Part shown: one piece after another, positions 15,788 through 35,024 of the stretch
Position numbering within the stretch: the stretch's first letter is position 1
Layout: each line of letters starts with the position of its first letter
Source of the DNA: Microthyrium microscopicum
Lineage: Eukaryota
DNA length: 64,000 bases
Assembly (NCBI GenBank): GCA_010405405.1
Contig: MU004234.1
Span: forward strand, 416,993 to 480,992
Reading direction: 5' to 3'
Translations under genes and position numbers: made by a program
Notes under the pieces: generated by a model
What the model was told of the DNA's origin: nothing
Database searches by the model: none
Seen by the model: only the letters and a program-made list of their open reading frames with translations

Positions 15788-16279
15788 GTTCCTTCTCCGA
15801 AACCACCCAGTGGATGTAGTTTCTTACTTGAGTTGGTAATACGAGGCAATGCGTGGTTGCTCAGTGCTGATATGTGAAGGGGTATTGGCACAATCGAAAG
15901 GAGGGGAATCTGGCATTCTTGAAAAGAGCTTCGGTGAGGCTGCTGAGTCTGCCTTGCTGCAGAAGCGTCCAAACAAGCCAATAGAAAGGTATAGGCTCTG
16001 CTCATACGACTCTAGACTCGGAAAGCCTACGATCGTCGATAAAGCATGTATTTTCGGTCGAACACACCAACCACAAAGCAGTGTAGCTAGACTCTACAAT
16101 CACTAAGCTGTGAAGTATCTTATGAATAATTGCATAACAACTCATTCATCAATGGCTGTCTTGAATGTCAACAACTTTTCGAACCGAACTTTGAAAGTTT
16201 TCGTAAAGTCTATTGTCGTTGTCGTCAACCGGGGACAAAACATATGGCGTGCTCCTTTCGAGTATAGGGTTTTCTATAA

Positions 16280-16396
16280 GGCCAATGTTAATCCGCCACC
16301 CTAAAAACACTATCCCGCCACCCCAAAATCACTATCCCGCCTTTATAGTAATCCAGATTAGCTGCTAGTCCTAAATAGGAAATAAATATATTTTTT
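16280..16396 (+). repeat. Left terminal inverted repeat of the MULE
   Basis: Reverse complement of 26385-26479, with one extra 22-bp internal unit. Confidence 0.92.
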
Positions 16397-17705
16397 AGAA
16401 GTAATAAGTACTAGCGTGTAGTTATGCCATTAGCGCTATTAGCGCTACTAGCACTTAAGTAGTATAGATCTTAAAATATAACTTTTATTACTATCTACTA
16501 CCCGTAGTAATTACTCTATCTTAAAGCCATTTTAATTAAAATTAATACTATTTAAAGTACAAATAGCTTATCCTCTATTACTACGACTCTATAAAGCTAA
16601 TATAATTATTCCTCTACTACTATAGCCTTTACGAGTTAAAAATATTATAATTTCTCTATAAGATCTACGTCCTCTACCTTGTTCGCGTCCTCTATACGCT
16701 TTATATATAAATGCTATCTTAGTTTAAAGTGCCTATAATTCTATTGCTAGATTATTACATTCTTTCTATTTATATATAAATAGTATATAAAAGAGAGTTA
16801 GGGATTAACCTACTAAAAGAGCTTTATATAAAAGAATAGCATCCTATTTTTAACGTTTTTAAGGTAGTAAGGAGTTAGTAAGATTGACAACTTTATAGGC
16901 TTATATAACTATAGTTTTAGTAACTTCTTATAAAATATTCTTATAATCTATAGCTTTAGCGGCAATTTAACTATTAATAGTACTAATAAAGGGCTATAAC
17001 TTAATCTCTTAGTAGCTTTATATTCTATTAGTTAAAGATAAAGTCTATCCTACGTATAAACGATCTAAAGCGCATATAATATCTAGAGGTAGGATAGAAG
17101 GAACTAGTTTTAGTAGAGGAGATATAAATTGTAGGCTTAAAGGTAATTAAGAAGTATTACTAAATTTAGATTAATCGTAATACTAATATAGATTAATATC
17201 CGTAGAATCTATCTACTAATAGTTATTAAATATAAGATGTTCTTATATTATATAAAAGTAAATAATACTATTTATCTTAATAAACGTCTTAATATAGTAG
17301 CAAAAGTATTCTAGTATAATATTCTTATCTTTATATTTGTAATATTACTCTTTAATTATAATATAAGCTACATTTAAGATAAGAAATTATAAATCTTAAA
17401 AAAGAATAGGAATTACGTATATACTAGTATTATAAAAGATTTAAATAGAGTCTAATCCTAAAATACCTTTTAATCTAGTATACTAAGTATTAACTATAAG
17501 TTTAATATTCTTTATAATCGTATAGAGGTCTATTTTAGAAGATTTTAGTTAAGATTTTAGGCCTAAATAGAGTCCTTCTAATAATAAAGTTATAAAAGTA
17601 CTAAAATGCTTAAATTCTATTATAAAAGCTTTAGCAAATTGCTCTTTAAATAGCATCTAAGTATTATTTAAGTAAGAAACTAGTATAGGATAAGAAGTAA
17701 AGTAT

Positions 17706-17909
17706 TATTACGGATCCTCTCCGTTAAGATCTCTTTATAAGATCTCTAGCATCCCCGTTACGTAATGCTAAGGGCTTAGCGCCTAAGGTTTAGCTAGCAT
17801 AGAGCTTATTTCCTGCCGGCTCTAATCCCTCTTTTAGATTCTTTATCTTAGTTTTCTTAAATTATATCTATATTTAGATCGCACCTTTTGTATCTATAGC
17901 TTCCTAATA
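17706..17909 (+). repeat. 5' LTR
   Basis: Direct repeat of 24848-25051. Termini TA...TA are the RIP-mutated form of TG...CA. Confidence 0.93.
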
Positions 17910-20900
17910 TAAAACTAAGACCGCTTTAATATTTAAAACCTATTTTCAAAACGCGCTTACTAATATTATAAGATTTAATAGTTTACGCGTCTAAATTTTA
18001 TTATTTTATATAAAATTAAGTCTCTAAATTTGTGAGAATAATAACCCTACTAGTATAGAGATTTATATATAAAGACTAAATAGCTTCATAAGTATAAATT
18101 AATTAGTAATTAAAGGGAAAATCTTAGCGTCTTCTACTCTATATTTATTAGACTTATAGTAATAACTTCGCCTTATATTTATATCTCCTCCTACATACCT
18201 AAATTAATAGTAATAAACCTAAATTAAGAATTACTCTTAATTAAAGTACCTAAACTCTATCCTAAATTAGCTACTCTAACGAAGCAAATTATTTAGAAGA
18301 TATTAGCTAATCCTTACGTATTAGCATTACCTACTTAATACTATTCAATATTACCTTTTTAGACTATATCTAATAAACTTTTTGTTAGTTATTAATTAGA
18401 AATACGCGTATAATTTAAGATTTAATAACTTTAAGAGACTACTTAGTCTATAATGCAATAGTTAACTCTAAAATTTTTTAATAGTAACGACGATATAGCT
18501 AAATTACCTTATAGCTATAGTTAGCATTATCCTTTTATTCGCTCTCGCTATTCTTCTTTAGCCCGAGCCCTAATTCTATTAAATGTTATTAAATAACTTA
18601 AAGGTAGCGCTTAAAACCTATTTAAGAAGGATAAAGGTAAGAAAGTAGTACGTTACGACGTATAACTATATTTACTAAATTAAAATTAAATTAATTAGAT
18701 TGCTTTTAAAAGCTAATACCTATAATACTTCGCAATATATATTAATATTACTCTAAAAGATTAAACCTATATTATCTTTACGTACCTTATATAAGATTAA
18801 GTAATATTCTAAGTATAAGAGTTTCTAAACCTAAAAGGAAAGATTAGACCTGTATTTATTAATCTTATTATACTCTGCTATATTTAAGACGAAGTAGAAT
18901 TAGAGGTTATTAAAGATAAAATAGGCTTTACTTATAGCGTTAGCTTTTATACTAATATTTAGTTTAAGTAGCTCTATAACTATATTAAATCTACCTAAGT
19001 AGCAAGCATCGCTTTTAAAGCTATATATATTAACTTAGTAAACCTATTAAAAGAATACTAGTATAATAAAGACAATATTTTAGACCTTTCTATTATATAT
19101 AATAATGCTATAGTATAAAATTCCCTTTTATAATAACGTATTTATACCTTAGAAAGCGAAGCTGCTTAAGCTATAAGCAAAGCTTATTAATTAATTAAGT
19201 AATAGCTTTACCTTAAAGAATAAAATATAATCTACCGTCGCGAGGTAATTAGAGCTATAGATATTATTAAGCGTCTACGTAACTCTTATATTAAAAAGTA
19301 TAATTAAATCGCACTTTTAAAAGAAAAAGTCTAAGACCTTAAAGATTAATTAAGTAACTTAGCTTATAAGACTAAAGAACTAGTATACTAGATAAACTCT
19401 AATAAGGAAGTAGACGTAATATTACCTTTTTAGAGTTACCTATACCTAAATCTCTATCTTAATATTAAGAACGCTATACCTACTTTAAAAGTATTAGTAA
19501 GCTTTAAAACTAATTTTACGTAAGAATAGTAAGATCTTAATATTTACAATAGTAAGAAATAAGATTTATACTCTTAGTAGAAGCTTAAAATTAAAAACTA
19601 CCTTTATTATAAAGTATATACTTTTTTTAATAAGCTATCTTAAACTATTTAGGTTTATAGTAAATATAAAGACCTTACTCTTAGCTTTATTATTAATTAC
19701 GCTTAATATAATATACCTAATTTATACGTTTTTATAGTAGAGTTTTAGAACGATCTTAACTACTATTTTGAAGGTACTAATAAGTATAAAGCAGCTCTTC
19801 TTTAGTTATAGAATTTATCTAATAAGATAAAGAAGACTAATAACTTAAGCTCTTATCTAGTTAAGTTTACTAATAAAACTAATAAGGCCTACTTATCTAA
19901 TATTAATAAACTAACTTATATACATAATATAATTATTAAAGAGCTAATAAGCTATCTCTATGCTAGTAAAGTAACTATAAGCATAGAATTTATAATAAAA
20001 TTATAATAAGTTAACTACCTTTTAAATTATAAGAAGTCTAACGATAAAAATAAGGATAAGAATAAGGATAAGGATAAGAATACTTAAAAGATAATTCTAC
20101 GCTATAGTAATACCTTATTCTTACACCTTAAGAAAGAAAAACACTACCTATAATATAGTAATAAAAGCTATAATCTATAATCTAAAATTATACCCTACTA
20201 AGGTAAAGACGCTATATTTAATAATAATATCTAAACTAAATTAGCTTTAATTTATACTTCTTAGTTATATTATGCTTTAAGCATAGAAGATAATAACAAT
20301 ATACCCCTAATTTATAATTAACATTAGAGAAACGCGTAGCTCCTTTATACTAACGCACAGATAAGCTAAACTTTAATAAGGTATAAAATAAATAAAAGAA
20401 ACACTAGATAGAAGCTATTTAGGCTTATTTAAGCAAATCTAAATTTAAAAAAGAACCTTATTATAGTATAGTAGTAGTTTACGTATCTACTACCTATTTA
20501 TTAATTAATTAATTACTAAAAATTAATACTATCCTAAAAGTAAGATAATAGTAGAGTATTATAGAAAGTATCTTTCTTTTAGATAGCTTTTATATTAAAG
20601 CAAAAATTCTTATTAATATAAGTAACAGCGTATTTAGTATTATTAATTTTTATTACTTCTAACTTTATAGCCTTAAATTTATTAAAATGTTAAGATTCTA
20701 TTAAGCTAAAATAGCTAATAATTACGCTATTACTACTATAACTTATATAGTATTTATTACCTTACGTATTAGTATTTATTTTAAATAAGCCTTATGCTTC
20801 ATTATAAAAATCGCTAACTATAATATTATTTTTAGAGACCCTTAGGTTAACAAGTATAAAGTTATACTTTAAGGAGGCTAGCGAACGTTAGGCTTCTACT

Positions 20901-23900
20901 TTAAGTACTATCTCTAAAGCTATATAACTTTACACTGCTTTATTATAGTTAATTATAAAGGCTAAGTAGTTATAAAAAAGAAGGATAAGAATACTTCTAA
21001 TATTTATATTATTTCTTTCCACGTATTTATAACTCTAATATAGCGAGAGAAAAACTAATTCTCTATATTATATAAAAAAGATTTTAACGCATTAGAAGAA
21101 GAAGAAGATCTAAATCCTATTCTTTAGTATAATATTACTAGTATTATAGCAATCTTAATAAAAGACTATACTAAATAATAAGAAAAGCTTAAATAAGATC
21201 CGCTAATATAAGAAGAATTACTTAGCCTAATTCCTAAAGAATTTTACTAATATATCTATCTCTTTAACCTAGTACGAGCTAATAAATTACTACCCTATTA
21301 CCTTAAATTTAATTATTCTATCCTAATAAATTTATAAACTAAAGTACTTATATAGAAGTCTTATAGAATATTACGCTAATAAGCTTAAATTATTAAAAAG
21401 TATATCGAAAATATACTTAAAAAAAGTTTTATTTATAAAAATACTTCTTAATACGCTTTACTAGTTTTTTATATTAATAAATTAGGTAAAGATATCTAGG
21501 TCTATATAGATTACTATAGATTAAACGAAATTACTTTAAAGAATTAGAATATTCTACTACTTCTTATTAAAACCTTTATAAAGATTTATAAAGCTAGATT
21601 CTTCTCTAAATTTAATATTATTACTACCTTTAATAATATTCGTATTCGTAAAGGTAATAAGTATAAAACTGCCTTTTTTACCTGCTATAGCCTATTTAAG
21701 TTCCTTATTATACTATTTAGCATAACTAGCTCTCCTAGAATATTCTAAGCTTTTATTAATAGCGCCATTTAAGAATACCTTAACGATTTTGTTACTATAT
21801 ACTTAGATTACGTCCTTATTTAGAGCGAAATTAAAGAAGAGTATATCACTTACATCTATCTAATCCTTAATAAGCTTAAGAAAGCTAGCCTCTACCTTAA
21901 CATTACTAAGTTAAAATTTATAACTAAGAGCATTAAATACCTTAGTATTATTATTATACCTAATAGAATCCTTATAAACAAAAAGAAAGTAGAAGTAGTA
22001 CTAAAATAGTAACGCCCCTTATTACTTAAAAATATCTAGATATTCTTAAGCTTTACAAACTTTTACTACTAATTTATTAAAAAATACTCAAAAATCGTAG
22101 TATTAATAATAGTACTTACTAAAAAGAACGTATTTTAATAATATTCCTAGAATCTAGACGGCCCTAAAGAGGCCACTTTTAAAGCCTTAAAGAAAGCTTT
22201 TACTATAGTATTAATTTTATAATATTTCAATCCTAATAAAGAGACTTGGCTTAAAACCAACGCCTCTAATTAGGTTATTGTAGTAGTTCTTTTATAAAAG
22301 AATAACGATAAAGAACTTTACCTAATCGCCTTTTTATCTAAAAAGATAATATTAGTAGAGTATAACTATAACATTTACAATAAAGAACTACTTATAATTA
22401 TCTACGTATTTAAAGAATAGAAACTAGAGCTATTCTCTATTAACGATTCTATTAAAGTCTATATAGACTATTTTAACTTAAGATCGTTTATATTTATAAA
22501 AAAGCTCTCCTACTATTAAGCGCATTAGGCAAAGTTTCTATTATAATTCTAATTTAAAATTAAATATTGCAATAGACTATTAAACGTTAAAGCTAATATC
22601 CTTACCCAACGGTCTTAGAACTTATTATAATTTAATAACAACCTACGAGTCGTATAATAAATACGTTTTATATTATTTTTTTACCACTTCGCTAATACTT
22701 ATAATATACGCTATATATCTAATATAATTACTTATAACACGCGCTAAGCTATTAAGATAGTAATTATACTAGTTTAAAATAAACGCCCTTTAATAATTAA
22801 GTTAGCTATAATTATTATTAATAAAGTTGATATATTTACTATAAAAAGGGAGTTAATTAGTAATCCGACTATAGAGAGTTATTCTAAAAATACTTTGACT
22901 TTAAGGAAATTAACTAGTTATTCTAAGGTAGAGAATATGCCCGCCGACCTAGAAACGTTATAAAAAAATATTATTAAAGTAAGTAAAAAGGATAAGCTTA
23001 TTTAAACTATTTGCAACTATAAAGTAGCGTAGTATTACTACTTACCTTATAATATATTAAAATATAAATCTATTAAGCTTAGAAACTATTAAGTCTTTAT
23101 AAATAAAACTATTTAATATTACTAGCGCCTATTAGTTTCTTATAGAAAACTTCGCTATTATATAATATAATACATATACAATTATAAGATTATAGAATAT
23201 AAAGGTACTACTACGACTTATTAATGTCTATCTTAATTCTACTACTAGCCTTATATAATAGAAGATATTAAGTAATATATAAAATAATGCCGCTATGCTT
23301 TTTTTAAGCTAGTAATATAAAAGAAATAAGGCCTACTACGGTTATTCCTTTTATTAAATTGCGCGTAAGCTAATATCTTAATCGACTTTGCTATCGCGTT
23401 ACTACCGTACGTTTACTTAGAAGTTATTTATCGCTATACTATAATAGTAGTTAATAGACTTACTTATATTTATTACTTTATATTCTTAATTAACCTTAGT
23501 ATTTAGATAATAGTATTAGCATTCCTTAACTAGATCTAGAAGTATACTAACTAGCTAGACTCTATCTTATCCAATTATAAATCCTAATTTACTTTAGCCT
23601 TTTAGCGCCGCTTATATAAGCAAGTAGGAGTAATAATCTATCTTATTACTGCTTAGTATTTATAATCTAACAATATTATTAAGATCGTAGTATAAACCTT
23701 AAAAACTTACTTATAATACTTCGTTAATTACTAATAAAATAATTAGGTAGGACTTCTACTATTTATTAAGTTTAAAGCTAACTACGCTATCTACGCTATA
23801 ATTAAAATAAGCCTATTTAAAGCGCTTAACGGCTCACTACTACACTTTAGCTTAGAACTAGTTATATTAGCTAAAGCATTTATAGGCTTTAAGCTAATAT

Positions 23901-24847
23901 AAAGTAAATAACACTCTATAAACATATTCTTTAAAGATAGATAAGACTTATATAATTACCTTTACGAGCAAATTTTATAGTCTTAAGTACTAATAAATAA
24001 GTAAGTTAACTAATATTACTATCTAGTACCTAACCTTAAATTAGGTAACTAAGTATATTTAGATATACATTACTATAAAACCCTTTACTCCTCTAAATTA
24101 CTTAATAATAAATCTACTAGTCTATTTAAAATCTTAAAGAAGATTAATATACTTACTTATAAGCTTAATCTTTCTAAGAAGATAAAAATATACCCCGTCT
24201 TCTATACCTAGCTTTTACACCCTATTCTTAAAGGCGCCGCCATGCTATAAGAATCTAATAACCCTTTAGCTATTATTAATTTAAAAGGAAATAACGATGA
24301 GTAGAAATAGTTAGTTAATTACGTTATTAATAGTTATTAGTATAACTAACAAGGAAAAGGTAAAAAAAAGATACTCTAATATAAAGTTAAATTTACTAAA
24401 TAGGATAATTAGAATCGCAACCTAGATTAGTAATTATAAATAGATCTTAAATTATATCCTAAGCTCGTCACAAAGTTTTACGACTATAATCTTATAAAAC
24501 TAGGCCTTTATAAGTTATTTATTAACCCTTAGAAAAAGAAGAATAAAGAATATAATTCTAATAATATTCCCTTCAATTAATAAGGTTATTATTATTACTA
24601 TAGTAATGTTTTAATACTTCTATAAATTAGAGTATTCTAAGAATATTTTATAGTTCGTTAATACTACTTAATAGTTACTTTAGTAAGTTAGAGGGTAGTA
24701 AGAAATAGATACTTATAGTATTATATATAGAAGGATGTTAAACTCTTTACTTTTATTATTATAGTTATAATATATTTTATATCTATTATAGCGTTATCCT
24801 ATATAGTTAGATTAGCTTAGGAGTATTAATATTAGAGAGGAAAGTAT

Positions 24848-25051
24848 TATTACGGATCCTCTCTATTAAAATCTCTTTATAAGATCTTTAGTATCCCTAT
24901 TACGTAATACTAAGGGCTTAGCGCCTAAGGTTTAGTTAGCATAGAGCTTATCTCCTACTGGCCCTAATCCCTCTTCTAGATTCTCTGTCTTAGTTTTCTT
25001 GAATTATATCTATATCTAGATCGTACCTCTTGTATCCGTAGCTTCCTAACA
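24848..25051 (+). repeat. 3' LTR
   Basis: Direct repeat of 17706-17909. It ends in CA and is followed by the TSD AGTAT. Confidence 0.93.
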
Positions 25052-26384
25052 AGTATTTAGTATTAAAATTAAGTTAGGTAGCATTATACTCTTCCTTAGT
25101 TAAAGAGTAAACTACTTAATAATTTATTAATAAACTACCTTTAATAGAGAGCTAAAGAACTAACCTTTTACTAAATATCCTATATAGAATTCTTCTTTAC
25201 TAGTACTTTAAAATAACTAGGACTACCCTTTATATATTCCTTAGTTTTAAAGGCTAGTTTGAATTAGTAATAGATAGTTTTATTAAGGTAAAATAGGCAA
25301 ATAAGTTAAAGCGCTAGTAGGACCTAATTTAACGTATTCTTAAGGGCTTAATAATAATTAGTAAGCACAATATTTAGTAATTTAATACTACTATAACGCG
25401 CAGAATAATTAAACGCTTTAAGGGTTTAGATATAATTCTCTTCTAATTCACTCGTTATAAAATAAAACTCTAAAGAGAAGTATTTATTTACTAAATTAAT
25501 ACTAGTAAAGTAAAGAAGTAGCATTTTATATTTATTAGTACTATAGGTAGTATTTAATAATAAGATATTTAGATAAGCCTAATAGAGCTTTAATTATAAA
25601 AGTATAGCAAAGAAGATATATTATAAATAAAGCTCTAGAAATATAAGATATTTATAAACGAGTTTTTTATTAGCTTTAAGGTCTTAAATTAATACCTCTA
25701 TAAGTATTTTACTACCTAAATATTTAATTTAAGTACGTATCCACTAATTATAGATATTCTATAGAATTATTATAATAGCCTTATTTTTAATAAGCGTAGA
25801 ATATATCTACTTTAATTTTTAGCCCTATTCTATATAATTATTAATCTTTCTACTACTATTAATATATTTTAATACGTCTTAATAGTATTAAAGGTATCCT
25901 ATAGGATCTTAAGATAGAGGATAGTTATAATAATTAAGTTTAACTTTAATATTCTATATTTAGCTATTATTAATATCTACACACTGTTTAATAACGTATT
26001 AAAATAGGTATTCTACTTCTTTAGTAATAGGTTTTTATATTCTAAGAGAGATAAAGGGGCAGGTTAGGTATTAATCGTATTTAAGATAGTAGACGTAAAA
26101 GGAATTAGTATCTTTTTAAGTTTTAGATTACTTTTTAACTATAGCGTAATTATAAATTTTATTATAATTTTATATTACTTTGCAAGCTACTTTATAAGAG
26201 GAATAATCCTTACCGTCCGCGTATTATTTAATTACTATTTAGTAGAGTTATAGTTAAAGGAAGTGTTAGTAGATTTTAGTAAAGTAGTAGTAGAATTTTA
26301 CTAAAGGTAAGAAATAAAGTTAAGATTTTAGTAATATTAAGATAAGTAAGTATGCTTAGCGGCGCTAATCTTAATAAGTAGTAA

Positions 26385-26479
26385 AAAAAATATATTTATT
26401 TCCTATTTAGGACTAGCAGCTGATCTAGATTACTATAAAGGCGGGATAGTGTTTTTGGGGTGGCGGATTAACATTGGCC
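26385..26479 (-). repeat. Right terminal inverted repeat of the MULE
   Basis: ...GGCGGATTAACATTGGCC followed by the TSD TTTCTATAA. Confidence 0.92.
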
Positions 26480-26815
26480 TTTCTATAACACTCTCTGAAC
26501 AAGAAACTGGCCCTAGTAGTTGGTCTCTGTGTGGAATTTGCCCCGTGATGGAAGAGGATGGATATATTGTGAGAGATTGCTTACCTTGTGTCATTGGGAA
26601 GCGAGCTGATCAGGTGCTGTTTGTCATTTCGTGAAGAGTACATTGGCATGGTGATTTCCTTGGGTCGTTATTCACACCCATTATGGTGCATATAAAAAGC
26701 GGCCTTTCAAGGAATCTATTCATTTCTTTAGTCCCTAGACCTTGCATCAATCAACCAGTAACTCTGCAGCCAGCGCACAATATCTGCATTCTACAAACGA
26801 GTCTCTCAATTCAAC

Positions 26816-27025
26816 ATGTGTGAGGTCCATTATTACGTCTACCGTTGGTGCCGCCATCCGCATGATTACATCGGTATTCCACTTGATATAGACAATCATT
26901 CGCATAGCTGGGCAAGGTGTACAAAAGCGCTTGCCACACAACTTTTGTGTGAGCAAGTCAACCCATTTGACGAACAATATTGGCTGGACGGGTATTGTCC
27001 ATACTGTACTCAGATGAAGGCTTGA
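26816..27025 (+). CDS. Small Cys/His-rich putative metal-binding protein, paralog 1 (69 aa)
   Basis: MC-x9-CRH...C-x9-C-x15-CPYC. TATAAAA at 26691 and start context TCAAC-ATG. The motif is shared with two neighbouring ORFs. Confidence 0.75.
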   Translation: MCEVHYYVYRWCRHPHDYIGIPLDIDNHSHSWARCTKALATQLLCEQVNPFDEQYWLDGYCPYCTQMKA

Positions 27026-27847
27026 TGCGATTATTTCTTCGTGGGTTGAAGCAGGATTTATCTGTAGTCGTTTTCATATGGAACAGTACTTCTCTTGCGA
27101 GACTATTTGATTCATCTAGATTCTAACAACTTCTTGCGTTGTTTATGGGCTTTTATAGTTGGCAAGTAGATGTCTGCCAACTGGAGAAGTTAAGGTGTTG
27201 TATACCTACCTAGTCATAATTGCAAATAGCTTATGTAGTATCATTTAAGCAGCTATATATCTGGGTATAAAGAAGTTCTTAATGCTATTTCCACATAAGA
27301 ACGATGGTCTCGATGCTACCAAACCTTTTGCTATATCATGAAATACATAGCTACCTAGTTAAAAAGAAAGACCTTTCTAAAATGGTGTTAATCTTCCTAT
27401 TCAATAAGATAAGTTTAGTTACATGTAGCTTAGTTTGACCTGGATTTTGCGACTAGGACAGTTGCTTACAACTACTAGATAGCCCAAATACTACTCCATA
27501 TTGATCATAGCAATGTACTTCTATGCATCTAAGTGTTTGGTAGTTCGAGATTCACTCTCTGGTAGTGGCTGCGTCTTCTTGTCACTACTGAGAAGTGTAT
27601 GTTAGTAGGTATCAGCACTCGCGCTTTAGACACTTTGAGGCTGCTTTGACGATGTTACGTTGAACACTCACCTTAGTAGACAGGTTAATGGCAGAAGAAG
27701 AGCAGGTATTAAGAAGTTGGATTTATGCCAGAACAGTAATCCAAATATGAACCACATCCCAGCAATCGTACAAGCCAATCAACTGTGATACATATCTATT
27801 CTCAGTATTAGACCGTCCTCTACACAATACAGTACTTACTTTTCAAG

Positions 27848-28048
27848 ATGTGTGTCGTCGCTGGAGCAGTCCATAGACAGTGTGGACACGCAGTAAGGCC
27901 AGTCTATTACAGCGAAGTCTGCCCATTAGCATCTCATAAAGAAGAGAAATGTGCAAAGCCAAAGCCGAAGATTTCGAACATGTGGGTCGATGGGCCATGT
28001 CCTGCTTGCCAGGTTAGTGTCACTAAGGTTGAAGGAACAGGAAATTAG
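27848..28048 (+). CDS. Small Cys/His-rich putative metal-binding protein, paralog 2 (66 aa)
   Basis: MC-x9-CGH...C-x9-C-x15-CPAC. TATTAA at 27707 and start context TCAAG-ATG. Confidence 0.75.
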   Translation: MCVVAGAVHRQCGHAVRPVYYSEVCPLASHKEEKCAKPKPKISNMWVDGPCPACQVSVTKVEGTGN

Positions 28049-28339
28049 TTATTGAAGCATCAGGCACGTAAATAGCTAAATGTTAAATTTTAAAGTACAT
28101 CTATAATCTACAAATACGAATGTCTCCCAGTGAAAATTTTAAATATGTATACTTGCCATGGCTTTAACCAGATTGCATAAAGTTAATGGCTAATGAACGT
28201 TTACAAAAAAGGGCGTCCTCATGGCATCAAGATGTACGGGTTTTACACATTCAACAAATCATCTCGCAATATCAGATTATCTTACTTGATCCAGCTGCCA
28301 GGTTTTCTTAACCACCTTACATAATCTTAATTCGTGATC

Positions 28340-28573
28340 ATGTGCATCACAAGTAGCCAAGTTTATCGCGACTGTGGACATCTGGCACCGGGTATGCCTG
28401 GCCATCCGGCACCGCAGGTATCTCCATGCCCTATTGCGAAGGAAACTGGCCAAATATGCCAGACGACATCAGAATGTCCATGGATGGTAGATGGAATATG
28501 TACTACTTGTAGAATGCGTATAAATGAGGAGTTCATCATCAAGTGGATGCCTGGGCCGCCACCCTATAGATAG
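28340..28573 (+). CDS. Small Cys/His-rich putative metal-binding protein, paralog 3 (77 aa)
   Basis: MC-x9-CGH...C-x9-C-x13-CTTC. ATG at 28340 has A at position -3. Confidence 0.75.
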   Translation: MCITSSQVYRDCGHLAPGMPGHPAPQVSPCPIAKETGQICQTTSECPWMVDGICTTCRMRINEEFIIKWMPGPPPYR

Positions 28574-28915
28574 AAAGCAGTGGAACAGCAGAATGAAGAC
28601 AACTCGGGCGCAAGAGCATGAGCTGTGGAAATGAGTGATTCAATGAATGAAGGGTTAGACAGAGACCAGTGATATAGTGAAGCTTAGTGTCAGCAACTAA
28701 TAAAACCATTTTTCTGAAGTGAGGAGTGTGAACTTTTAGAGCAGTGACTAAATGGCTTGAGCTGGTGGCCAACTACAGGAAGACCATTCGCAATTCATTT
28801 CTATTTACTCTGTGAGCGATTTAAGATACAAAACATACAAAGTGGGATGTGAGATTGATCACTTCGACGATAACAAGCCCCTGTGTGGAACTAAACTAAG
28901 TGAACCTGCGTACTA

Positions 28916-29118
28916 TCCCCTTGGCTGATGAAATTCGATCCTCCTTGCCTTGTGGCCTGATGCTGCCTAATACTGCCTAATACACCTCAAAAGTCACGGG
29001 AAGCCCTTTATTGCCGCGCGCCTAAAAGCTTGCTCGTGACTTTTGAGGCTGATTAGGCTAGATTAGGCCCAAGTGAGGCTGTCAGGCAAGGAGGATCGAA
29101 TTTCATCAGCCGAGGGGA
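28916..29118. mobile_element. Fold-back MITE-like element (Tc1/mariner-type, TA-flanked)
   Basis: 35-bp terminal inverted repeat TCCCCT[T/C]GGCTGATGAAATTCGATCCTCCTTGCCT with one mismatch, an inner inverted arm CCTCAAAAGTCACG/CGTGACTTTTGAGG, TA on both flanks and no ORF. Confidence 0.8.
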
Positions 29119-29256
29119 TAGAGATATCATCCGCCTAATGATACAGCTTGGATATCTGGCGTGTAGGAATCAAATATGTCAATCTCGAATGGTAATCATA
29201 TTAGAACTGTCTACTAAAATCCTGCATATCGTCATGAGTTTCTCGTCAGAGACCAT

Positions 29257-29631
29257 CTATTTCCATTGTCCAGCATCTCTTGAGCCCTTCGCAATACGAG
29301 CACCGCCATCTTGAACACCGTCGCCTACGGACTCAAGAGCATTGCCAACAGGCTGACCAACACCGCCCGTCACGCCAGTGACCGTCTCACCGAGACCGCG
29401 GCCTACAGCGCCTATCACAACGTCAGAATATAATGTAAAGGAACAGTAGTAGGGCCACATACCGACTACACCTCCAACAGTATTCGAGAGACCCGAGACG
29501 GTGTTTCCGACGGCAGTGGTAACGCCTTTGGCAACGCCCTAAAGTATGGTTAGCCTCAAAGCTAGGAGCTAGTGTTGAGTTAGGAGACGGTAACGTACAG
29601 TAGCTCCGGTGTCATTGTTGTTCAAAGTCAT
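29257..29631 (-). CDS. Small Gly/Val/Thr-rich hypothetical protein, 3 exons
   Basis: MTLNNNDTGAT|GVAKGVTTAVGNTVSGLSNTVGGVV|GAVGRGLGETV...DAGQWK*, with canonical introns in phase. Confidence 0.8.
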
Positions 29632-30931
29632 TTTTATGTGTGTATGATGTGGTTGTGGGTGAAAGATATGTTGTGTTTTGAGGAATGATGTTGTTTCGAT
29701 TGAACTTATAATCTTCAAGACATTTGCACTTGCTTTTATGCTCGGGAGTGTACAGACAAGGCTGAACTGACGTCATTTTCATCCTCAGCCTTGTTGCTTG
29801 TTTGCAGCTGACATGCGTGGACACTGATGACTGGCTACATGGTACAAGGTCAAAGATAGTACCTGGTTGGTCAGTATCAAGGTCAGATCGAGAATGCTTT
29901 GAGGTGGATCAGATCTAAGATGCTAACTAGGTATGTCAACGGGTATGTTTTAACTTCGATGCGTAACCGATCCAGATCTTATATGCAGTCCCTCTGATGA
30001 ATATCGTCTTTTGATAGTATCCATATGATATGGCTTCATACAATAGTAAGTATGTAGGTTCGCTATCAGTGAATAGCAACATCATACGAACCAAACAACC
30101 GGGTTTTTGCCACAACCCTGTTTCATATAGATGAACGTCTGCCTGCGGCATCGAAATCCAAGAAGCCGCGGCCACGAATCCCTCAACCACTTTGGGCCCT
30201 GAGCTTGACCAATCCGATAACGGAAAAACTTTGATTCTCCAGAAATATCTACATATAGGTACTGAGGATGCGCAGCCAGGTACACGAAATGAACCGGGGA
30301 ACCGAAGAACTCGATACGAACAAGTGTATATCCAATTAAGGGAAACCAAGCTTTGCCAACTGACATCTTTGATAGTTGAGCAATAACAAAACCGAAGAAA
30401 GCTACCAAGAGTTCTAATTCGGTAGTGATATGATCGTCGAAAACGAGGTTCTCGCCCCATCATCACCTATACAGATTCCAAATATGCATGTTCGACGGCA
30501 AAAACCCTGGCTGCCCCAAGCCTTCGTTTCGCCAGAATAGTGCTTCCAGGGTCAATATGGAACCGGACATATAGCACGACTAAATTACATTAACATTGCG
30601 GGCTAAGTGGTCATAAACCCCACCAGTCACGACAAGTCCTCTCACCAACCGTGTGTGGAGATGTGCGCCTGGATATGAGTATTGCTCTCCACGTCTTCCC
30701 CTATTCTCCGTCGACCGCCCAAGCTCGGGTCTCTTGCGCACGCATAGAGACTTGCCGATTTTCCCTTCTTCGAGATAGTCCGACTTTATAAAACCCCACA
30801 AATGGATGGCCTAGGAACGATCGGCGCATTTTGATACGAAGCTGTCTTGTTGACTGGATAATGCGGCCTCGCGGGTGTGATTCTTCTTGTACCAGGACTC
30901 TGCTGTTTGCGCGGCCTACCTTTGCAGAGGC

Positions 30932-33134
30932 ATGGCGTGGGTCAGTCTGCTTCTGGGATTGATCGTCTTGAAGGGCCAGGTCTCTGCGCAGGATCGTCGG
31001 TGTTGGAGAGATACCAAGTGTACGGGTCCTGCTGCGCGTTCCTTTGAGGGTCCTTGGAGCTCGAATATCTATGCGCCAAAGTCAAGAACTGTTCCGCCGC
31101 AACGCGTTCTGGATACAAAGGGGAAGGTGGTGTCTTCGAGCTTTTCGAGTAGCGCGGCAAGTTTGAAAGGCAATGGAAGTACAATCGTTCTGGACTATGG
31201 GATCGAGGTTGGGGGAATTGTGCAGTTGGAGTTTACAGCTAGTGGCAATACTTCGATAGGACTGGCCTTTTCCGAATCAAGAAACTGGATTGGTCAATGG
31301 TCTGATTCTTCCAATGGGCGTTTCAGAGGACCCGATGGCGCTATATATGCGGATGTTACTGGCGCGAGTACGAAGTGGACCATGCCTGATAAGTCCCATC
31401 GTGGCGGATTTCGATACTTGACGCTGTTTCTGAAAGACCCTGATAACAACAATACGAGTGTGAAGTTCTCTGCCGTGAACGTTGAGATTGGATTTCAACC
31501 AACCTGGTCGGACCTTACGGCATATCAAGGGTATTTCCATTCCAGCGATGACCAGTTGAACAAGATCTGGTATGCCGGAGCGTACACGCTCCAGACGAAC
31601 TGTGTCCCTACAAAAACTGGACGATATGTGCCCATGCTGGCGAGGGGATGGGCGAATAATGCGACTCTCGGACCTGGAGATACAATAATTGTCGACGGAG
31701 CGAAGCGAGATCGAGCAGTGTGGCCTGGCGATATGGGGATAGCAGTCCCTTCCAGTTTCTTCAGCACTGGAGATTTAGACAGTGTTAAGAATGCTTTGCA
31801 AGTAATGTTTGATACCCAAGTAAGTTCGATTCTATCCTTTCTCGTCTCAGCTGCTAACATATCAAAGATGAAAGACGGCGCTCTTTACGAGGCAGGACCT
31901 CCATTATTGCAGAAAAACAGCGATAGTATGTTTCCCCAAGCTGAGTGTCGATCGCCATACTGACTGAGTTCCAGCTTACCATATGTGGACCCTAATCGGT
32001 ACTTATAACTACATTCTTTATTCCGACGATCAAGACTTCCTAGACAAGAACTGGGTGAAATACCAGGCCGCCATGGACTACATTACCAAAAAGATCAATT
32101 CCAAAGGCCTTCTTGATGTTACGGGCAAACGTGACTGGGCCCGCCTGAATCAAGGTGGCCAGAACAGTGAAGCATCCCTACTCATGTATCAGACTCTGCG
32201 CACCGCAGCTCGGCTGGCCTCATGGAAGGGTGGCATAGCGTCCAGCACGCGAACGAACTTTGCCTCGCGTGCCCAGACCGTAAACACCGCGGTGAATTCG
32301 CACTTGTACGATGCAAACGTCGGTGCAATCCGGGACTCTGTCGAACGCCCCGCTCTATATCCCCAGGATGCCAACTCGATGGCAGTGCTCTTCGGCGCAG
32401 TGCCAGCAGATCGCGCGCGTAACATCAGCCGTGCGTTGACAAAGAACTGGACACCTATCGGAGCAGAGACACCGGAGCTACCAGGTAATATCAGTCCTTT
32501 CATCTCGAGCTTCGAAGTGCAAGCGCACTTTACGCTAGGCGAGACAGCGCGGGCACTGGATCTGGTGCGGCGTACATGGGGCTGGTATCTGATGCACGAG
32601 GCTGGTACACAGAGCACGATGATTGAAGGATATCGAACAGATGGAAGCTTTGGATATCGAAGTGAGCGTGGATATTCGAACGACCCCAGCTATGTCAGCC
32701 ACGCACATGGCTGGTCAACCGGCCCCACAAGTGCTCTAACGAATTTCATAGCGGGCATCGATATCTCAGAACCTGCAGGACGACGATGGAGTGTGAGGCC
32801 GCAATTTGGGATCCTACAATTTGCAGAGGCAGGCTTTACAACCAAGTTGGGCCGATTTCGTACAAAATGGGAGAAAGTTGGTAAAGTGGGCGGTTACCAT
32901 ATCGCAATTGACACGCCTGCTGGAACAAAGGGTGTGGTGTTGTTGCCCAATATGTCTGGGAAGAATGTTGTGACTCTGGTCAATGGAACCGCAGCACAAG
33001 GAAAGCAACTCGACAATGGGCTTGAGGTTCAATTAGCAGGCGGCATCTGGAACATCACGGTGAGATCCACCGATGAGCCACCACCTGCGGATCCAGGATG
33101 GTTTGGCGGCCTATTCGGCAGTTCTCGTAAATAA
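30932..33134 (+). CDS. Secreted alpha-L-rhamnosidase, glycoside hydrolase family 78
   Basis: Signal peptide MAWVSLLLGLIVL, LDYGIEVGG, GGFRYLTLF, VDGAKRDRAVWPGD and SHAHGWSTGPT; 2 introns. Confidence 0.92.
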
Positions 33135-33305
33135 CTTTGATACTTAAACCTTTTAATAACAAATCTATAACTCATGAGCCACGAAAATCTCCGTGAGATT
33201 CGTTGTTGATAACTAAGGCTACTAGTAGATGTAGATGTTGATGATCAAGGGAGAGTGCCATAGATGAAGAGTGTAATAAGCACTTGATATCTATGGCTTT
33301 TGTAC

Positions 33306-35024
33306 TCATGCAATCTCTCCCTCGCTCTTTTCACCGTCGTCAATTCTGGACTTTTCCAACTGGGTTCTGAGACCGCTTCGATCTAGATTCATCGCCCGTT
33401 CAATCTCCATTTCTTCTTCGCGGAGTCGGCTCTTTCCAAAAGACTGGGCACGGTGCTGCTGCTTCTTGGTCTCTTGAACCTTTCGCTCTCTTTCCAGTAG
33501 TGCTTGCTCTCGACGTTGACGTTCTTTACGCTTCGCGGATAGCAAGGCTTCTTCCTTGGCACTCAAGGCATTTTCTGGGGGAGGTGGTCGTGTTTTGATC
33601 CAAGTCTCGATCAGAGGATCCCGCGTCGAGGGTGCGACTGAGATAAACCTTAAATCGGTTGTGAGAAATGAGGGGAGCTCGTCTATTGAGGTATTTCGAT
33701 TAATAGCCGAGATTGGAAAGGTCTTGAGAAAGGATGAAAGATCAGTTGTCAGAGTTCTGCTGGGCAGTTGAAGTCGTTTGACATATTCGCGATAGAGTTT
33801 TTCGCGATCTTTTTCTGGAAGTTTACTGTCTTTCATGACAGATTCTTTTCGATATTTCCGTTTGAACTCTGGCCAGTAAAGCTTGGTTGAAGCATGATCC
33901 TGTAGGAAAGCCAGGTAAGGAAACTTGGGGTCCTTTTTCGCTTCCTTTTCTCTAGCTTCTTTTCGCTCTTGAATCTTGTTTCGTGACCATTCGTCCCAAG
34001 CTTCTCGTCTAGACTTCATGTTCGGCAGTGCAGTATATCTCGAATCCTCGATGACGGCGCCCTCCTCTATGATCTTGTCCCAAGTCTTGAACGGATTTAT
34101 CCTGAAGTCTTCCAAAAGGTCGAAAAAGAGGGTTTTCGAGTCTTCTTCAGACAAGGGATCGATGTCATCGCCTTCCTCGAGCTCGTTTTCGAAATCGTAG
34201 TCATCCATTCCATCAAGCTCAGCTGCGAGATCATCCTCGTTAAACTCTATCGGTCCTTCCGGTTGGATTTCTTCCACTCTTGCTCGTTTTGCAGGGCCTT
34301 CGGCATTATCCTCATCCTCATCGTCCGTTACTTCGGTGTACTCGCTTGAGTTGCCATCTTCCTCCTCATTGGCTGCATCCTCAAGCTCCTTTCTCTGGGC
34401 TTCCTCTTCTTCATCGTCCCTTTCTTCCTCACTTGCTTCACCGCGCTCCTTCCGCTCTTTGCGTTCTCTTTCTATGCGATCAAACTCTATCACGCCTTTC
34501 AAGACATCTTCCGGAAACCGCCAAAGACTCTCGCCTGTTTCTGTGTTATGTACAAATCGTCTTTTCAGTTTCGTCACAATCAGGATCCAGGGTTTGTAGC
34601 CTGGAATATCATGTCTGTGCTTCGGGCGATCTTGTGGCTCGGGGCGTCGTTGATGGTGCTGGCCACCGCGTCCACCTCTTGAACCTCCACTACCGCCTCT
34701 TGAACCTCCAAAGTCTTGGCCGAAATTTGATTGCGCGAAGCCAGCGGCAAATTGACCAGAGCCGTAACTGGGTATAGGGATTGGGGCGACTAAACGAGGT
34801 GCTTCTGCGACGGGTTTCGTATATGTGGACTTTTTGGTTTCGGCGTGATAGTAGTAGGTGTGGCCTATCTGATGTTAGGTACTATCACCAATGCTCATCT
34901 ACATAACGGAGAACTTACCACTCGGAGCTTTGTGTTCAGTCCAGCCAGGCAGTAGATCGGAGGTGGACTGGGGCGCTGAGCCTTGCGCACCAGGCTTTTG
35001 GGCGTTATGCGTTGACTTGAGCAT
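33306..35024 (-). CDS. WW- and FF-domain protein (TCERG1/Urn1-like splicing-associated factor)
   Basis: Spliced WW domain (LPGWTEHKAPS|GHTYYYHAETKKSTYTKP), a second WW-like segment (FVHNTETGESLWRFP) and FF repeats (FFDLLEDFRINPFKTWD...DSRY). Confidence 0.85.

Follow-up and report, generated by a model that had tools for sequence, protein, structure and literature searches.

The stretch of DNA considered here (the window) comprises 64,000 nucleotides of the fungus Microthyrium microscopicum (assembly GCA_010405405.1, contig MU004234.1, positions 416,993 to 480,992), in which three short open reading frames (ORFs), termed ORF1, ORF2 and ORF3, follow one another on the plus strand (Table 1). An initial annotation, made from the sequence alone, had described three co-oriented ORFs of 69, 66 and 77 amino acids (aa) with a common skeleton of cysteine and histidine ligands, and they have been located on that strand as described. 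In each of them the start is the first ATG past an in-frame stop, with the stop-to-stop pieces beginning at 26762, 27812 and 28331, respectively, and an A is present at position -3 of all three ATGs, as had been claimed. The skeleton, from M-C to the final C-x2-C, was read in the three translations exactly as it had been put forward. Its N-terminal part is M-C-x5-V-[YH]-R-x-C-[GR]-H, while the second half consists of C-x9-C, then 15, 15 and 13 residues, respectively, ending in W-x(1-2)-D-G-x, and then C-x2-C. A MAFFT alignment gives a pairwise identity of 30-31% and 13 invariant columns (M1 C2 V8 R10 C12 H14 C35 A38 C45 D58 G59 C61 C64).

Table 1. Features at and around the three ORFs, in window coordinates.
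Feature	Positions	Strand	Size or distance	Remarks
ORF1	26816-27025	+	69 aa	family member; C2, C12, H14, C35, C45, G59, C61, C64
ORF2	27848-28048	+	66 aa	family member; C2, C12, H14, C25, C35, G49, C51, C54
ORF3	28340-28573	+	77 aa	family member; C2, C12, H14, C30, C40, G52, C54, C57; extra C46
TATA-like box TATAAAAAG	26691-26699	+	125 nt before ORF1 ATG	consensus match only
Weak TATA-like TATTAAG	27707-27713	+	141 nt before ORF2 ATG	consensus match only; inside exon of minus-strand transcript
Spliced transcript antisense to ORF2	27439-28031	-		exons 28031-27840, 27795-27672, 27584-27439
AT-rich block with signature of repeat-induced point mutation (RIP)	16000-26400			ends about 400 nt before ORF1

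Within the window the skeleton is confined to these frames: as a regular expression it matches 3 of the 175 ATG-initiated ORFs of at least 50 aa, namely ORF1-3, and no further family copy was found among 1459 six-frame pieces. When profiles were built from two of the frames and searched against the same pieces, ORF1 and ORF3 together recovered ORF2 (E 4.5e-6), and ORF2 and ORF3 recovered ORF1 (E 3.5e-4). The similarity lies at the protein level, as no nucleotide repeat links the three, the longest direct repeat being just 24 nucleotides (nt) at 75% identity, which agrees with the initial annotation. Its claim that signal peptides are lacking is likewise consistent with hydropathy, the crude measure used here in place of a dedicated predictor: no hydrophobic N-terminal stretch appears, the highest 12-residue Kyte-Doolittle means in the first 30 residues being -0.04, 0.96 and 0.07 for ORF1, ORF2 and ORF3, and no membrane segment is apparent in that scan. 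Secreted small cysteine-rich proteins of the effector type are recognised by an N-terminal signal peptide, and in ORF1-3 it is the conserved module itself that begins at residue 1. This placement at the extreme N-terminus, which marks the members of what is here called the Cys6His family, is found in all three.

A hidden Markov model search, proposed in the initial annotation as a check, has revealed relatives outside the window that keep the spacing of the Cys and His residues. When 1.84 billion (1.84e9) representative proteins were searched with HMMER and the three-sequence profile, six proteins were returned at E<=0.001. Three of these, P0002 (74 aa), P0003 (a 245-aa hypothetical protein of Xylariaceae sp.) and P0004 (93 aa), have library-wide E-values of 8.6e-5 to 1.4e-4, align over the whole module from their own residue 1 and retain every Cys and the His; P0002 is the best outside match of ORF1, with 36% identity. 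The other three, P0001, P0005 and P0006, were judged unrelated as they match the profile only in part (positions 41-70, 46-68 and 7-22); P0001 and P0005 are repetitive proteins that lack the N-terminal half of the skeleton. A word-index protein search with the three-sequence alignment gave nothing, at near or at longer lengths, and with six sequences it returned only P0002 and P0004, both already in the query.

The family became much larger when metagenome contigs were searched at the DNA level with the pattern M-C-x6-[YH]-x2-C-G-H-(34-44 aa)-G-x-C-x2-C. At least 80 loci were obtained and, among the 80 listed, 74 carry an in-frame, uninterrupted skeleton, with two or more Cys within the stretch left free by the pattern in 70 of these 74. 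As a control, the same pattern matched only three places in 596 gigabases of prokaryote genomes, two of them with in-frame stops and the open one lacking internal Cys. A stricter DNA pattern that also demanded W-x-D-G had no metagenome match. From 59 distinct metagenome ORFs of 60-140 aa, 35 cluster representatives at 70% identity were drawn, of which 31 were aligned with ORF1-3, P0002 and P0004 to give an alignment of 36 members, L034, L060, L069 and L071 being omitted as they appear cut or frame-shifted. Nine columns are invariant in 36 of 36 members (M1, C2, C12, H14, C30, C40, G52, C54 and C57 in the numbering of ORF3), and all nine are present in each of ORF1, ORF2 and ORF3. The invariance of C30 and C40 constitutes independent evidence, since both were left unspecified by the DNA pattern. 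A profile made from the outside homologues only finds all three frames among the six-frame pieces of the window (ORF1, E 1.5e-10; ORF2, E 8.4e-8; ORF3, E 9.7e-10). Judged by these alignments, ORF1-3 belong to a large unnamed family of microproteins of Pezizomycotina and are not a local oddity.

Family lengths lie mostly between 63 and 117 aa, closed by an in-frame stop. Among 58 distinct metagenome proteins, the ATG of the M-C start is the first one past the upstream in-frame stop in 45, and an A occurs at -3 in 36. The tails that follow the module differ by subfamily, comprising basic or acidic helices and, in a group of 95 aa, a conserved extension of 35 residues. Two distant members end in CaaX-like C-termini, L044:601-819:+ in ...PVCCVMM and L014:529-789:- in ...GCGCGVM, an indication that some members are prenylated and anchored in membranes. 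Since the processing of CaaX boxes takes place in the cytosol, these two ends, together with the absence of a hydrophobic N-terminus, hint at a cytosolic location. A possible second tandem copy was noted at one locus, the only one of the 80 listed: in L079 (190-477) it runs from about 877 to the end of the locus, some 400 nt downstream, and is truncated there. No recurring neighbour was detected in the 600-nt flanks of the listed loci, and a Pfam scan of 38 of the 144 distinct flank ORFs of at least 100 aa gave only PMT_2, at L065, where the match to the pattern is a chance one.

The initial annotation had recognised no named domain in these proteins, and the Pfam-A scans (2025 copy) are in agreement. 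No family was listed for ORF1-3 at E<=10, none rose above its gathering cut-off for 26 relatives searched at E<=1, and none was listed at E<=0.01 for six longer forms, one of which is also among the 26. A total of 34 different members (three from the window and 31 relatives) has thus been scanned with no zinc-finger family above threshold. In the ESM Atlas the nearest clusters are small hypothetical proteins of Ascomycota, with scores of 0.89-0.91 that serve as a lead only, and the named clusters, searched separately, yielded no usable match. No description of the family was found in the literature, including the accessible part of PMC7394265, a negative to be read with the provisos that motifs are not text-searchable, that supplements lay outside the scope and that another name is conceivable.

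As regards gene prediction, an exact look-up in a collection of 15 billion proteins did not return ORF1-3, although another protein from this window, of 369 aa, is listed there from NCBI. The local annotation has most likely skipped ORF1-3, since that protein is in the collection and they are not. Of ten metagenome members looked up by exact sequence, four are in the collection, unnamed or as "hypothetical protein", and six are absent, so that the statement that gene callers miss such genes holds as a tendency. A family confined to this locus or invisible in the databases is, on the other hand, contradicted by the deposited members, which are listed as hypothetical proteins from Xylariaceae sp. 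and Hyaloscypha sp. and occur in many metagenomes. Xylariaceae and Hyaloscypha represent two different classes of Pezizomycotina. One member cluster includes P0025, an NCBI model of 227 aa from Hyaloscypha sp. Compared with P0013 and L031, the module is spliced in this model after residue 82 onto a second exon to give the 227 aa, and metagenome callers have split its counterpart into an unspliced form of 97 aa and the second exon as separate proteins (P0022, P0024). As far as these deposited sequences go, gene models for the Cys6His family are inconsistent.

Selection on the family has been estimated among the relatives, from the ratio of nonsynonymous to synonymous substitution rates (dN/dS) that the initial annotation had proposed to calculate. 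In same-length pairs with 0.05<dS<2 (n=58, pairs that are not independent), the median is 0.26, 52 of the 58 pairs lie below 0.5 and none reaches 1, which indicates purifying selection. With nine invariant residues in each ORF and a dN/dS of about 0.26 in the relatives, the view that selection has kept six Cys and one His is borne out. Given that ORF1-3 show no detectable nucleotide similarity and still retain open frames and the nine invariants, this state would be unlikely to have arisen without selection over most of their history. That ORF1-3 are paralogues of one protein family kept by selection is therefore supported by the sequence comparisons. Their order of descent is less clear, as a maximum-likelihood tree of the 36 members has only two well-supported branches among its 33 inner ones. 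By BLAST, P0002 comes closer to ORF1 than either of the neighbouring ORFs does, and ORF3 is about equally near to P0004, P0003 and ORF2; this closeness to outside proteins would fit an old split, and an origin of the trio by old tandem duplication is plausible on such comparisons.

Structure prediction and a Foldseek search, likewise named as checks, gave no meaningful match to a characterised fold (best E 0.37). For ORF3, the predicted local distance difference test score (pLDDT) of the AlphaFold2 model was 58.7 when 6 sequences were supplied and increased to 79.0 for 36, where the predicted template modelling score (pTM) is 0.51. The 36-sequence model consists of a strand (2-9), a short strand (26-28), a helix (31-36), a strand (43-50) and a second helix (55-69), and the layout of the 6-sequence model is nearly the same, the deeper one adding the short strand 26-28. 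The top Foldseek rows were C-terminal Zn(Cys)4 domains of Fur/PerR proteins (PDB 2fe3, 2rgv), at E 0.37-0.95 and a template modelling (TM) score of about 0.3, which is not significant, and a sequence-profile search of the PDB gave nothing below E 0.8. A prediction of a homodimer with zinc scored 0.02 against a mark of 0.32. The predicted fold has no recognisable solved relative, and at this model quality a new fold is not proven by that.

On balance we lean, if only slightly, towards reading ORF1-3 as real protein-coding genes, anciently diverged tandem paralogues from a large family, as yet unnamed, of small intracellular proteins of Pezizomycotina with a zinc-folded module. A zinc-stabilised mini-domain is suggested because a stretch of some 60 residues contains six Cys and a His, and because a strand leads into a C-G-H turn and a helix begins with a CxxC, so that the family is probably zinc-binding; we infer metal binding from the conserved Cys6His pattern only. 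The module would occupy about 60 residues from the initiator Met, with M1, C2, C12, H14, two internal Cys and G-x-C-x2-C as its invariants. It would fold around zinc, passing from strand 2-9 through the C-G-H turn and a short helix between the internal Cys to strand 43-50, with the CxxC at the N-terminal end of the long helix. The seven ligands could provide one full tetrahedral site and a second site, which might be completed by a bridging thiolate, by Cys2 as the free N-terminus after Met removal, or by a variable residue. An N-terminal module with differing tails would fit a rigid binding or adaptor domain, in which the variable C-terminal tail sets the partner or the location; both the intracellular location and the adaptor role are features that we infer. 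A further-reaching form of this proposal, possible but rather doubtful, sees an unclassified metal-binding fold specific to filamentous ascomycetes, in which the N-terminal Cys2, exposed after Met removal, takes part in a second, unusual site, such as one made up of the alpha-amine and three thiolates, or a binuclear cluster in which a thiolate forms the bridge.

The kind of protein proposed is already known, namely small Cys/His metal-binding modules, and what is new is this unnamed family. Small zinc-ribbon and treble-clef modules, such as zinc_ribbon_6 (PF14599), resemble it in their small size, in a Cys/His knuckle after a strand and in a CxxC at the N-terminus of a helix, and PF14599 gives a weak sub-threshold match to P0002 (E 0.0032, 17.8 bits against a cut-off of 27). 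Unlike these modules, the Cys6His family has seven conserved ligands rather than four or eight, and its module always begins Met1-Cys2. The C-terminal Zn(Cys)4 domain of Fur/PerR/Zur is also a small strand-and-helix domain held by cysteines, including a CxxC, and is recognised by a fold with two CxxC pairs around one zinc; no sequence relation was found, and the structural likeness falls short of significance, as given above. The N-terminal zinc module of copper-fist proteins (PF00649) is a fungal Cys/His module that starts from residue 1 with C-x8-C-x-H, a likeness by description and not by alignment; it was not listed for ORF1-3 at E<=10, and ORF1-3 are far shorter than copper regulators of this type, with no DNA-binding part recognised in them. 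The C(P)XCG zinc-finger microproteins of archaea are described as stand-alone Cys-rich proteins below about 70 aa that are predicted to bind zinc and occur in many copies per genome, with functions mostly unknown (PMC11241148; PMC10716476). They differ in belonging to another domain of life and in having two CPXCG knuckles, and no sequence relation to them was found.

Several observations weigh against reading ORF1-3 as expressed genes for a zinc-folded module. The seven conserved ligands do not make two standard sites, and confidence in the ORF3 model is no more than moderate. In Haloferax, several microproteins with predicted zinc fingers are reported not to bind zinc (PMC11241148). As regards homology, the leave-one-out profile of ORF1 and ORF2 reaches ORF3 at E 0.51 only, the search of the window with the outside profile is partly circular, since the outside homologues were chosen by their likeness to the window profile, and the profile scores of the pattern-selected loci were given no weight, as chance matches reach 7-16 bits. 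Codon usage, compared with that of the long genes of the window, yields log-odds of -5.2, -0.8 and -6.6 bits for ORF1, ORF2 and ORF3, and among 95 ATG-ORFs of comparable length they take ranks 57, 43 and 59. In ORF2 and ORF3 none of the other five frames scores better than the proposed one, whereas in ORF1 two minus-strand frames do. The RNA data come from one run, X5, whose origin from RNA was judged solely from its contigs, in which short GT..AG or CT..AC pieces of neighbouring genes are missing. Its depth over ORF1 is 0, which is not evidence of silence, and over ORF3 the cover is low and unstranded, with a depth of 5.1 in the bin 28340-28773; as no listed X5 contig explains this depth, it follows by arithmetic that a low-depth contig must cover part of ORF3. 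The sole RNA over ORF2 is antisense, as both introns of the transcript carry minus-strand splice signals. The transcription check suggested in the initial annotation has thus been answered in part, X5 showing no assembled sense transcript over ORF1 or ORF2 and low unstranded cover as the only signal at ORF3.

The antisense transcript is represented in X5 by a contig of 462 nt with a depth of 25 and no mismatches. Its introns are 27839-27796 (44 nt; GTAAGT...AATAG) and 27671-27585 (87 nt; GTGAGT...TACTAAC...CAGTAG), which on the minus strand carry classical fungal signals for splicing and the branch point, and the transcript looks non-coding because its longest spliced minus-strand ORF has 51 aa. 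The ATG of ORF2 follows one intron edge at a distance of 9 nt. Over ORF2, assembly yielded no unspliced sense RNA, and the listed contigs explain the bin depths fully, but contigs drop rare variants. These data would suit a locus of minus-strand spliced non-coding RNA in which ORF1-3 are no longer expressed as proteins, being relics or only partly in use, and such a locus would also account for an ORF1 devoid of RNA cover, for codon usage that is neutral to poor and for the absence of the exact sequences from a protein collection that holds a neighbouring gene. It is nonetheless an unlikely explanation, since the frames are intact with nine invariants despite an identity of 26-31% and no DNA similarity left, and the relatives are under purifying selection. 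The loss of rare variants from contigs also limits what one run under a single condition can say, and antisense transcripts are known often to coexist with sense genes.

A different chemistry for the module is about as improbable. Two C-x9-C pairs recall the twin-CX9C proteins, and three Cys with one His could hold a 2Fe-2S cluster. The spacing C2-x9-C12 and a second C-x9-C occur in all of ORF1-3, which are similar in size to the twin-CX9C (CHCH) proteins, and the module might thus be a thiol/disulfide one, in a Mia40-type substrate of the intermembrane space, or a Cys3His binder of an iron-sulfur cluster in redox sensing. The second spacing, however, is not conserved across the family, being x8 in P0002, x11 in P0003 and the 75-aa subfamily and longer in others. 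A CHCH protein forms a helical hairpin from two C-x9-C helices, whereas residues 2-9, in the first pair, are predicted as a strand by both models, and the family has an additional invariant His and the CxxC. Neither the CHCH nor the CDGSH domain appears in Pfam for ORF1-3 even at E<=10, and a CxxC at a helix start is typical of zinc sites.

Least probable is that ORF1-3 are first exons of longer spliced genes, with the microprotein reading a result of truncation: P0025 of Hyaloscypha agrees with the 97-aa form over residues 1-82 before entering a second exon, P0003 reaches its 245 aa, two metagenome ORFs extend to at least 255 aa and a GTTAGT stands just past the CxxC in ORF2, but most members stop in frame within 63-117 aa, no sense-strand splice joint leaves ORF1-3 in the RNA contigs, and the intergenic DNA between the three has 34-38% GC and no long ORF.

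The genomic setting of the trio is fungal, with a HECT ligase, a DnaJ protein, a proteasome subunit, a rhamnosidase-like protein and an FF/WW protein as neighbours and with introns of about 50 nt in the window according to the RNA contigs. The TATA-like boxes reported in the initial annotation before two of the ATGs have been located, at consensus level only and with the second one weaker (Table 1). Scans for promoters and terminators of bacterial type remained at or below shuffle levels and are irrelevant for a eukaryotic sequence. Upstream of ORF1, the AT-rich block carries a RIP signature, with a GC fraction of 0.25 (21-29%), a TpA/ApT ratio of 1.6 and a (CpA+TpG)/(ApC+GpT) ratio of 0.24, compared with 0.67-0.9 and 1.27-1.31 for the two ratios in the rest of the window. 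Its portion 24000-26400 has a multi-copy depth in the DNA run X1, where contig differences are mostly transitions (C>T, G>A, A>G, T>C). ORF1-3 themselves are not RIP-like; genes of about 200 nt are perhaps too short for RIP, which could, as a speculation, explain the persistence of the tandem trio.

Further features were noted downstream. Between ORF3 and the next minus-strand gene, a perfect inverted repeat of 17 nt, with arms 133 nt apart, encloses an imperfect inverted repeat of 46 nt (28934-29100), and the DNA depth there is single-copy. At 29181-34863 a single RNA contig of 5.5 kb contains introns of both the CT..AC and the GT..AG form and covers genes of either strand, and neighbouring transcripts must overlap or abut there. 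A plus-strand intron (30326-30375) falls within a minus-strand ORF of 176 aa (29936-30466), which perhaps does not represent a true gene.

The trio beside a RIP-degraded block constitutes a natural test case for very short genes that duplicate and persist where repeats are mutated. Should the second site prove to be of the unusual kind, the family would represent a novel class of zinc or metal fingers, of which each genome contains many copies and which annotation has for the most part overlooked. If the broader reading of ORF1-3 as genes of a zinc-folded family is true, filamentous fungi would carry a widespread and fast-diverging family of Cys6His microproteins that is often skipped by gene callers and is without a name, a Pfam model, a structure or a known function. 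With the family defined, the catalogue would then gain a new small metal-binding domain, the annotation of fungal genomes would benefit, and a concrete set of targets would be available for the study of small intracellular proteins.

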